Shown here one piece after another: positions 35,291 through 44,642 of a stretch of 64,000 nucleotides of DNA; position 1 is the stretch's first letter; each line of letters opens with the position of its first letter. Source of the stretch: Dehalococcoidia bacterium (GTDB lineage Bacteria > Chloroflexota > Dehalococcoidia > Lucifugimonadales > G965248475). The stretch spans positions 1,775,640-1,839,639 of the forward strand of contig OZ252106.1 in NCBI GenBank assembly GCA_965248475.1. The letters are read 5' to 3'. The notes beneath the pieces were generated by a model, which was not told the origin of the DNA, ran no database searches, and saw nothing but the letters and a program-made list of their open reading frames with translations. Position numbers and translations under genes: made by a program.

Positions 35291-35926
35291 CTACGGCCCC
35301 CAGTCGGTGGTCTGGCTGGGGCCGGGCTGGGCCGGTACGTACATGGAGCACACGCGGACTGTGTTGTTGCGACCCATCTCTGCCAGGCGGCGCATGAAGG
35401 CGGCCATGCGGTCCTGCCCCCAGGTGAGGTACTGCTTCCACGTCTCTTCGCCGCCCAGGTTGATGCGGTTGGATGCGAAGCTGGACCACTCCAGGGCAGC
35501 ATAGGCGCCGGCACCAGTGGCCACCAGATCCTCCAGGGGCACCGGCAGGGTGGAGGTGGTGCCGTCCAGGGTATGCACGGCCCCGTAGTAGACGTCCACG
35601 TCCTCGCTGCCGGCGGGGGCGGAGTCCACCAGCAGGGTCAGCGCACCGGCCCAAACGCTGAACCGCACATAGGTGGGCGGGTAGTTGCCGGTGGGGTACT
35701 CCACCGCCTCCACGGAGACCAAGCCGGTGAGAGATGCAAGGCTCAGGTCACGACTACCCGCCGTGGCAGTGAGGGTGGCCTTCATCTCCCTGGGCGCGGC
35801 GCTGCCTACCTCATCCAGGGCACGCTGTAGATGCCGATCGAGCTCGTTGTCAGTCCATCGATAGTTCAGCGAGTCTTCATCGTGCAGGTCACGCCGGACT
35901 CTGGTCCGCATGGTTGGAAGGTCCAT
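35291..35926 (-). CDS. phage-like structural protein (211 aa)
   Basis: AGGAGG RBS 8 nt before the ATG (MDLPTMRTRVRRDL). The N-terminus resembles phage head-tail connector/adaptor-type proteins. Confidence 0.5.
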   Translation of the reverse strand: MDLPTMRTRVRRDLHDEDSLNYRWTDNELDRHLQRALDEVGSAAPREMKATLTATAGSRDLSLASLTGLVSVEAVEYPTGNYPPTYVRFSVWAGALTLLVDSAPAGSEDVDVYYGAVHTLDGTTSTLPVPLEDLVATGAGAYAALEWSSFASNRINLGGEETWKQYLTWGQDRMAAFMRRLAEMGRNNTVRVCSMYVPAQPGPSQTTDWGP

Positions 35927-36196
35927 GTGTCGTCGCCTCCTGGGCAGAGTTTGGGAAAGGTGCGTGTCCGTTGGCCGTGCCTTCGTCCGCCACGCCTTCA
36001 TCCAATGTAATGACGCCGGTCTGCATGTCGAGCTGCGCCACCTTGGCCAGCAGCCCGTAGCGCCGCCCAGGTCCAGGGTGGTCTCCTGCAACTCCTGCTG
36101 GGCCATCTGGGCCCGCAGCGTTGCACGCTGGAGCGACAGCCGGGCGCGGCGCAGACGGTAGAGGTCGCGGGGTGTGAGCTGCACGGTGCTTTTCAC
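35889..36196 (-). pseudogene. small coiled-coil phage-like gene needing a -1 frame change near 36065
   Basis: The GTG start 4 nt after the upstream stop gives MKSTVQ...QETTLDLG. Protein-like sequence then continues only in the -1 frame (RRYGLLAKVAQLDMQTGVITLDEG...). Confidence 0.35.
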
Positions 36197-38111: not shown

Positions 38112-39004
38112 CTAGTCGCGGACACCTATGAGCTTTGCCAGTTTCACGGTGTTGTACAGGGCGACGGAGACGTACCATTTGACCCGCGTGCGGGTGGCGT
38201 CCTTGGTCTCCAGGCTGCCAACGCGCTCCACCTGCAGACCGCCGGGGCCGGTGAGGCCCACCACCGAGCCTTCTCCGAACTGCAGGCCGTAGACGGTGGA
38301 GCAGTCGGTGCTGCTGCCGACGGTCTGGGCATCGGAGATGTAGTCATTGATGCCCACGGGGATCCCATCGTAGAACTGGACCATCTGGCCGAACTCGTTG
38401 CGGTCGGTCTCCAGCAGGCCGGAGCCGGTGGCCCTGGATAGGGCTTTCATCTTGCGTCGGGAGCGTCGGCTCATGAGCAGCATGTGGGGCTTGTTGCCCT
38501 TGACGGTGTCTATGAGCTCGTCCAGCTTGTCCAGGGAGAGGGTTGCGCCGTTGGTGCCCATTGATACGGTCTGGCCGGCGGTGGTCAGCTTGTCCACGCC
38601 GTCGAATGCCTTGGGATCGGAGCCTGTGTCGCCGTTGATGAATGTGTCTTCGAACTTGTCGCGGACGGCCCTGGCCTTTAGCTCGACGGCGGCGGCCTCG
38701 AGGTCCTGTACGTTGGATCGAGTCGATTTAAGGTAGTTGTCGACGTCGGCATCGCCACCCAGGATGGCCAGGGCGGTGGTGACCTGGGTGGAAGGTGGGG
38801 GGTGGATTCGGCCCATGCGTCGCCAACGTCATAGAAGGCGGCGGCGGCGGCGGTGTCCTCGCGGTTGTAGGTGAGGCCGTTGCCCACGATTTCCACGAAG
38901 GGCATGGTCTCAAGGATGGGGCTCTCCTTGGTTATGGACTCGACGGCGGCGGCGAGGAGCAGGTCGTTGGAGAGTTTGGCGGCTTCTGCTAGTGTGAGTA
39001 CCAT
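38112..39004 (-). pseudogene. HK97-fold phage major capsid protein, reading frame broken in a C6 run
   Basis: N-part MVLTLAEAAKLSNDLL...YNREDT...AWAESTP and C-part TQVTTALAILGGDADVDNYL...VKWYVSVALYNTVKLAKLIGV lie in two frames. The frames switch at G6 38797-38802 (plus strand). Confidence 0.75.
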
Positions 39005-43424: not shown

Positions 43425-43430
43425 GCGTAG

Positions 43431-43448
43431 GTCCCGACCTGTCGGGAC
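43431..43448 (+). terminator. GTCCCGAC-CT-GTCGGGAC hairpin (REP family A) after the small TM gene
   Basis: Perfect 8-bp arms 7 nt after the stop codon. Same stem sequence as the hairpins at 2237, 37809 and 41758. Confidence 0.4.
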
Positions 43449-43512
43449 ACCCATATTTCTCAAGAACCGGACAGGTCGAATGGTAGGAACTTACTATTTG
43501 GAGGTATCGAAT

Positions 43513-43809
43513 ATGAAGGTAGTCAAGCAACACAACCTATCTCAGGAAGAGGCTACAAGAAAGGTTAGCCGTTTGCTCAAGCGATTGGTGCAGCAGTACG
43601 GTGGGGAGATCGCTGATCCTATCAGTGTGTGGACGCAGGATACGCTGGACTTCTCTTTCCGAACCTGCGGCATGAGTTTCAAAGGTAAGGTCGAGGTCGG
43701 CGAGTCGGATGTGACACTTGACCTTGGCATACCGCAGTTTGCGGAACCTTTCGAGGGAGGGATACGGTCTAGTGTTGAACGCGAACTCAGTTTCCTCTTT
43801 CCACACTGA
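43513..43809 (+). CDS. small protein resembling PHA-granule-region (PHA_gran_rgn) family
   Basis: GGAGG RBS. 98 aa with H.L..EEA..KV..L...L...YG....W....L.F......G..GKV.V....V.L.L pattern. Confidence 0.4.
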   Translation: MKVVKQHNLSQEEATRKVSRLLKRLVQQYGGEIADPISVWTQDTLDFSFRTCGMSFKGKVEVGESDVTLDLGIPQFAEPFEGGIRSSVERELSFLFPH

Positions 43810-43841: not shown

Positions 43842-44214
43842 GTGGCAAAGAAGAAGGTGTTCATCAGCTATGAGTATGATCATGACCACCACTTGAAAGG
43901 CAGCTTAATTGCTCAAGCCGAGTGGCCTGATTCTCCATTCTCTATATCAGATTTTTCACTGTAAGGAGTCCACTCCGGACCCCGAATGGTTACGTAAAGC
44001 ACAGAGTAGAATTAGTCGTTGTGATGTCGTTGTTGTTCTGCTTGGACCAAATACCCACAACGCATCAGGCGTACGGAAAGAAGTCAACATTGCCGAGGGT
44101 CTTGGCAAGCCTAGGTTCCAGCTCAGGCCTCAAGGCAGGCTCTATGGGAAGGTAAAGAATGCTGGAGAGGTACATGCCTGGAAATGGAAGAACCTGAAGG
44201 AGCTGCTGGCGTAG
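43842..44214 (+). pseudogene. TIR-like domain protein (DUF1863 / MTH538-type), +1 frame break next to a T5 run
   Basis: Part 1 is VAKKKVFISYEYDHDHH...SISDFSL followed by TAA. Part 2 in the +1 frame is KESTPDPEWLRKAQSRISRCDVVVVLLGPNTHNASGVRKEVNIAEGLGKP. Joined length 123 aa fits DUF1863. Confidence 0.6.
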
Positions 44215-44216
44215 CT

Positions 44217-44642
44217 GTGACGGACTCCGAATCTGCCAGGATAGAGCACCTGAAGCTCATCCAAGCCGTGATCGCGCGGATGGCCCGGAACTCCTTTGCT
44301 ATCAAGGCAGCCGCATCAACAATAACCGCTGCTCTGGTTGCCGTGACTGCAGGCTCAGGAACTCCCCTAGCCGCAATCGGCGGAATACCACTCATTATGC
44401 TATGGCTATTGGACGGGTATTACCTACGTCAAGAGCGACTGTTCCGCGAGCTATTCGACTTCGTGAGCACGGGCCAGCCTCCTGAACCAGGTAGCGAAGC
44501 CTACTTCTCCATGAAAACCGAAGGCCTTCATTCCAAAGCTGGCAGCCTGCAGCGAATATTGGTCAGAGGAACGCTACTGGCCTTCTACGTACCATTGCTA
44601 CTTATACTGGCGCTTAGTGCCATATTGGTGAGTCTCACCTAG
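44217..44642 (+). CDS. multi-TM protein coupled to the TIR-like gene (possible SLATT-like effector)
   Basis: GAAGGAG RBS inside the end of the TIR-like gene and a GTG 3 nt after its stop. ARIEHLKLIQAVIARMARNSFAIK amphipathic helix followed by 2-3 TM segments. Confidence 0.5.
   Translation: MTDSESARIEHLKLIQAVIARMARNSFAIKAAASTITAALVAVTAGSGTPLAAIGGIPLIMLWLLDGYYLRQERLFRELFDFVSTGQPPEPGSEAYFSMKTEGLHSKAGSLQRILVRGTLLAFYVPLLLILALSAILVSLT

Follow-up and report, generated by a model that had tools for sequence, protein, structure and literature searches.

A probable type V Thoeris locus, thsB and thsF, with an interrupted thsB gene in a marine Dehalococcoidia bacterium

Two small adjacent genes of a Dehalococcoidia genome, lying between positions 43842 and 44642 of the window (the whole stretch of 64,000 nt that was analysed), raise the question whether a frame-broken TIR-like gene and the membrane protein gene behind it form a defence system, to which system they belong and what the frame break signifies. 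The first-pass annotation, made from the letters of the DNA, had proposed a signalling/effector pair which follows a Thoeris-like logic, had likened the membrane protein to SLATT-type effectors and had not recognized any named system in the pairing. The locus is, with a probability of about 0.85, a type V Thoeris system consisting of thsB and thsF, in which thsB is interrupted by an extra T at position 43962. As such, the pair adds one more member, apparently a disabled one, to a system catalogued in 2024 and verified in 2025, and it extends the host range of this system to SAR202-like marine Dehalococcoidia.

The first gene opens as a reading frame of 40 codons, which runs from a GTG at 43842 to a TAA at 43962-43964 and is followed in the +1 frame by an open stretch up to a TAG at 44212-44214. 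The 5' piece of thsB (43842..43961, plus strand), as delimited by the ORF list, collinearity with homologues and DNA alignment, comprises codons 1-40 including the GTG start, and the 3' piece in the +1 frame (43963..44214, plus strand) comprises codons 41-123 and the TAG and carries Glu80. Joining codon 40 (CTG) to the AAG at 43963 restores a protein of 123 aa, which matches Pfam ThsB_TIR (PF08937) with 32.6 bits at a Pfam cut-off of 21.2 bits, the match extending over residues 7-96 and hence across residues 40/41, where the break falls. Among 5.8 billion proteins searched, there were 32 intact homologues of 121-136 aa, with which the joined protein is collinear and free of gaps at the junction; the best of them, P0121, is 89% identical to the joined thsB product and was used in its place for fold prediction. 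The AF2 model of P0121 (pLDDT 91.4) has its best structural match in the Bacillus cereus TIR 8fz9 (TM 0.81-0.83), with further matches to EcThsB, ThsB1, the SARM1 TIR and MTH538, while the TIR family profile recognizes the solved ThsB structures 8fz9, 8wcf, 9b7d and 6lhy by sequence. The TIR-like product of 123 aa that had been read across the +1 shift is thereby borne out by profile as well as by fold, and the two halves belong to one gene and are not unrelated ORFs, as collinearity with the intact homologues and the DNA alignment with relatives demonstrate. Glu80 is invariant among 37 members of the TIR family and is aligned with the conserved Glu of the solved ThsB proteins; by analogy with TIR NADases, we take this position to be the catalytic one. 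Apart from the window pair, the genome contains no ThsB_TIR locus. At its start, thsB has a GTG (43842-43844) where the relatives possess an ATG, i.e. the weaker codon.

The second gene, thsF, is an intact open reading frame of the PDC-M50A family (44217..44642, plus strand; 141 aa), assigned by PADLOC match, BLASTP, AF2 model and hydropathy, which ends with a TAG at 44640-44642 and might start either with the GTG at 44217 or with an ATG at 44184. The GTG is favoured because ThsF homologues are typically about 139 aa long. With this start the gene follows the TAG of thsB (44212-44214) on the same strand with a gap of 2 nt, so that the tight coupling of the two genes noted in the first-pass annotation stands, while the distance of 3 nt given there has to be corrected. 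The ribosome binding site that had been placed inside the end of thsB does not hold up equally well, as the candidate GAAGGAG (44196-44202) sits 14 nt from the start and reads GAAGGAA in relatives; spacing and sequence make termination-reinitiation coupling likelier than a classical Shine-Dalgarno interaction. In the start region (44217-44222), the window has an ACG where three relatives have an ATG, the GTG being located one codon upstream, so that thsF, like thsB, has a weaker start codon than its relatives. A promoter and terminator scan gave nothing above chance.

The predicted ThsF protein agrees with the amphipathic helix and two to three TM helices that had been proposed for it, in that model and hydropathy indicate three TM helices after an N-terminal amphipathic helix. 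Hydropathy places the TM segments at about residues 27-47, 48-68 and 116-140, and the AF2 model (pLDDT 89.7) consists of a long helix 4-47 and helices 50-85 and 118-140. Polar residues that are nearly invariant in the family (H11, Q16, R21, S26, K30, W63, D66, E73, R74 and R77) accompany a conserved motif, W-x-L-D-x-x-Y-L-R-Q-E-R-x-F-R. The window protein matches all four PADLOC PDC-M50A models (best 9.2e-30); it has no match in Pfam or NCBIfam, a fold search of its AF2 model against the PDB retrieved nothing below E = 1, and the 141-aa protein carries no Macro domain and no soluble domain. The family as a whole is large, with 5,925 clusters at 50% identity (E <= 0.001), and is carried by the genomes of at least 556 species from many bacterial phyla and some archaea.

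Type V Thoeris has been defined as the combination of a TIR protein, ThsB, with the three-TM protein ThsF, annotated as DUF2270, and two systems, of Bacillus sp. 1NLA3E and Bacillus thuringiensis DAR 81934, have been verified in Bacillus subtilis, where both were protective (Yirmiya et al., bioRxiv 10.64898/2025.12.03.692087). The signalling/effector logic suspected for the window pair has thus been demonstrated experimentally for this type. In PADLOC, PDC-M50 was listed as an untested candidate, cassette CAS_00164, which was first recognized inside loci of restriction and BREX systems (Payne et al., bioRxiv 10.1101/2024.01.29.577857). The two descriptions are tied together directly by the 1NLA3E locus: a search with a Bacillaceae family member found the 1NLA3E protein P0336 (132 aa), the gene of which starts, in CP005586.1, 1 nt after the gene for a 195-aa protein that contains, letter-identical, the verified type V TIR sequence of Table S1 of Yirmiya et al. 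As P0336 matches PDC-M50A (1.1e-44) and aligns with the window ThsF at 33% identity across 121 aa (BLASTP, E 2e-19), PDC-M50A is ThsF and the window pair is of type V. What had been regarded as a pairing without a name is therefore PADLOC PDC-M50, which is type V Thoeris, and the link between the two is now direct. The joined TIR matches PDC-M50B weakly (E 3.8e-4), and the adjacent genes match both PDC-M50A and PDC-M50B. Moreover, TIRs found beside thsF in the surveyed loci share 60-88% identity with those to which Table S1 gives the label 'DUF2270 - Type V'; the untested '3TM' class of the same table was considered as well and rejected, its TIRs being only 25-30% identical to ThsF-adjacent TIRs. 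A TIR protein with the conserved Glu, a three-TM ThsF homologue and adjacency on the same strand are all found in the window, and of the two reading frames thsF is intact and thsB is broken. On plasmids, homologues of the TIR from the B. thuringiensis type V system have SIR2 or Macro genes as their neighbours, and a small TM ORF was not seen beside them.

Whether genes of the ThsF family are linked to TIR genes elsewhere, as the defence reading presupposes, was surveyed in 80 ThsF loci from different species. Of the ORFs close to the membrane gene, 25 of 41 on its downstream side and 7 of 42 on its upstream side matched ThsB_TIR, and a further 7 downstream and 8 upstream neighbours matched TIR_2. 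An iterated TIR profile identified a same-strand TIR ORF within 200 nt (<= 200 nt) in 36 loci, to which 6 loci with overlapping ORF calls and 1 locus recognized by Pfam are added, so that a TIR gene adjoins thsF in at least 43 of the 80 species loci and the family linkage is established. The usual order is membrane gene, then TIR gene; the TIR gene comes first in the clade of the window and in the Bacillus examples. ThsF partners with many different TIR clades. Restriction enzymes of the MmeI/Eco57I type are three of the upstream neighbours of ThsF-family genes, in keeping with the description of PDC-M50 as a cassette that came from within restriction and BREX loci. Streptomyces ThsF homologues (L015, L020, L021, L039, L064, L072 and L078) show no adjacent TIR gene in simple ORF calls, and their scanned neighbours have no Pfam match or are housekeeping genes (OsmC, glycerate kinase); these homologues could be orphan effectors or could work with an unrecognized partner.

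By analogy with the verified members, phage infection would cause ThsB to convert NAD+ into a cyclic ADP-ribose isomer, this isomer would activate ThsF, a predicted ring-shaped membrane oligomer, and active ThsF would damage the membrane or arrest growth and thereby stop phage replication. According to Yirmiya et al. (bioRxiv 10.64898/2025.12.03.692087), 3'cADPR is the molecule used by the type V system of B. thuringiensis, models of ThsF show a ring-shaped homo-heptamer in which positively charged pockets lie between the protomers, and 3'cADPR added to cells was toxic only if these carried the verified type V system. The last result puts ThsF downstream of the signal. For the window the mechanism is taken over from these authors, and which molecule TIRs of the window clade would make is likewise a matter of inference. 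As sequenced, translation of thsB in the window would end after codon 40, so that no signal would be made and the intact thsF would stay silent. We also considered, as a doubtful extension, that the ThsF channels of Dehalococcoidia may be gated by a signal other than 3'cADPR, on the grounds that the minimal TIR stems from a clade otherwise linked to type IV Thoeris, whose characterized member, the TIR of Pseudomonas sp. 1-7, makes N7-cADPR (bioRxiv 10.64898/2025.12.03.692087). If true, this would help to explain why the verified 1NLA3E ThsF is not triggered by 3'cADPR (bioRxiv 10.64898/2025.12.03.692087).

The roles of the two proteins might, in principle, be reversed, with the TIR protein as an NAD+-depleting effector and the membrane protein as a sensor or anchor rather than as the killer. 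Such an arrangement has its precedent in some bacterial TIRs, in CBASS, Pycsar and SPARTA, which act as NADase effectors (bioRxiv 10.64898/2025.12.03.692087), but it is very unlikely here in view of the confinement of 3'cADPR toxicity to cells with a verified type V system, of the diversity of TIR clades with which ThsF is paired and of the fusion of ThsF to a ligand-sensor domain in P0239. In this protein of 378 aa, a SLOG domain (LD_cluster2, 1.7e-15) precedes a C-terminal ThsF/PDC-M50A module (1.2e-48), so that sensor and effector of the system seem to be united in one protein; the fusion supports an effector role of the ThsF module and would suit an effector driven by a nucleotide signal. 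Equally, the literature label 'DUF2270' could suggest that the membrane gene is a housekeeping gene of DUF2270 type that merely happens to lie beside a TIR pseudogene, the more so as 20 of the 251 Chloroflexota genomes searched (L095-L119) contain canonical DUF2270 genes, located within open frames of 260-490 aa. We consider this exceedingly improbable. Pfam DUF2270 (PF10028) has no match at E <= 1 in the window protein and 22 relatives, hhalign against canonical Chloroflexota DUF2270 gave a probability of 5.5%, and a detectable homology of ThsF to DUF2270 is accordingly rejected; over half of the surveyed loci have a TIR gene next to that of the membrane protein; and the pair is patchy, the thsF region having one weak match among 40 genomes of the same order, a distribution among relatives that is typical of defence genes. 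DUF2270 was found in none of the 5 genomes that carry the pair and in none of 301 Bacillota genomes, and among the 240 homologues listed only P0362 has a stored PF10028 match. The label thus probably rests on remote similarity, and as it misses most ThsF proteins, annotation pipelines that rely on Pfam will miss the system.

The position of the lesion in thsB is fixed by a DNA alignment with L002 and L003, two metagenomic relatives that both encode P0121: where these read TCACTG-AAGGAG, the window reads TCACTGTAAGGAG, and this single length difference, the extra T at 43962, creates the in-frame TAA (43962..43964, plus strand). The break had been placed next to the T5 run at 43952-43956; the shift is indeed present, but the extra base lies 6 nt downstream of the run and outside it, and no homopolymer has changed its length. 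As sequenced, thsB encodes no working TIR, because the product of the 3' piece would miss the first strand and helix. Pairwise comparison with relatives (dS ~0.45) gave a dN/dS of 0.14 in thsB and of 0.19 in thsF. Purifying selection has thus acted on both genes during most of their past, and this selection, together with the singleness of the lesion, makes the lesion either recent or an artefact. We lean, at somewhat better than even odds, towards a real lesion in the organism, in which case the break may possibly inactivate a costly system. At well below even odds, the system is intact in the organism and the extra T arose as an error of consensus calling or assembly in this long single-contig metagenome-type assembly, an explanation with which the purifying selection and the single lesion also agree and which gains from indels in thsB of two other Dehalococcoidia assemblies, L004 and L007; the extra T lies, however, outside a homopolymer, whereas errors of long reads usually fall in homopolymers. 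Altogether, indels in thsB affect three of the six Dehalococcoidia copies seen (window, L004 and L007), which is compatible with a real decay of accessory genes and also with indel-prone assemblies. A repeated knock-out of thsB in marine Dehalococcoidia owing to a costly TIR would be a reading weaker than that of a gating signal other than 3'cADPR. A programmed +1 frameshift or phase switch that controls the expression of ThsB would find the break suitably placed, as it coincides with a stop codon (CUG UAA G) a few bases past a T5 run, but has next to no probability, as all of the 32 homologues (32/32), 89%-identical relatives included, are encoded in a single frame without the extra base, as this base falls outside the T5 run and as re-pairing from CUG to UGU would be poor. 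With respect to the two other assemblies, an indel in an A7 run of L004 (3626-4417) fuses thsB and thsF into one ORF of 263 aa, and this TIR-ThsF fusion, being the product of the indel, was rejected as Rosetta-stone evidence. In L007 (3564-4031), two compensating indels of 1 nt, about 110 nt apart, leave the middle of thsB out of frame.

The type V assignment can further be judged by comparison with the other named systems. With type V Thoeris, the window locus shares the two-gene operon, in which a TIR protein is joined by a three-TM membrane protein some 135 aa long, and with the 1NLA3E system in particular the gene order TIR-then-ThsF and homologous ThsF proteins, both of which match PDC-M50A. 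It differs in that the window TIR is a minimal ThsB_TIR/DUF1863 protein of 123 aa, whereas the verified TIRs have 195 aa and 251 aa and are of TIR_2 type, in the frame break of thsB and in its host, a marine member of the Dehalococcoidia. Relative to PADLOC PDC-M50 (CAS_00164), both models of which are matched, model A best, the difference lies in the order, which is usually A then B, with the TIR gene first in the window. Among the experimentally characterized TIRs compared, the type IV TIR of Pseudomonas sp. 1-7 comes closest to that of the window, with 35% identity in an alignment of 82 aa and a shared motif, F-x-x-D-x-S-x-K-E. Type IV Thoeris, however, combines its TIR with the caspase-like ThsD/E, and the window contains no caspase-like gene, the partner being ThsF. 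The window TIR shows 43% identity to a TIR which Table S1 lists as type V and which carries the same cluster label, 2635319349, as that of Pseudomonas sp. 1-7. Type II Thoeris, in which ThsB is combined with the TM-Macro protein ThsC, is set apart by its effector, as that of the window lacks a Macro domain.

Type VII Thoeris, composed of ThsB and the SLATT protein ThsH, and the SLATT proteins of CBASS resemble the window pair in that a small membrane effector answers a nucleotide-derived signal. The proposed likeness to SLATT-type effectors did not survive the profile searches, though: none of 23 family members matched Pfam SLATT_1-6 or SLATT_fungal at E <= 1, membership of these families is rejected, and ThsF has three TM helices and a different conserved motif. 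SLATT proteins were reportedly described as two-TM proteins by Burroughs et al. in 2015. A genome search with SLATT_5 yielded one strong sequence only.

The pair resides in an accessory island which contains MazF and HTH genes as well as remnants of phage capsid and adaptor genes at 35-39 kb. An HTH gene, a gene for a MazF-type toxin, a small 2-TM gene and a PHA_gran_rgn-like gene are located upstream of the pair. The last of these (43513..43809, plus strand; 98 aa; Pfam PF09650 at 4.5e-13) directly precedes thsB, occupies the same position in the closest relative, L002, and has a dN/dS of 0.19. It was considered as a third component and rejected, as no homologue is present in 80 other ThsF loci; it is probably a lineage-specific neighbour outside the system. 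The phage remnants comprise Phage_capsid/SU10_MCP and SU10 adaptor matches at 38112-38816 and 35291-36196, respectively, on the minus strand, and as the capsid match starts at profile position 92, the capsid gene seems to be truncated or frame-broken. The small 2-TM gene is separated from the PHA_gran_rgn-like gene by a stretch with a REP-like hairpin with an 8-bp stem, GTAGGTCCCGACCTGTCGGGACACCC (43427-43452), of which at least 8 near-identical copies are present elsewhere in the genome.
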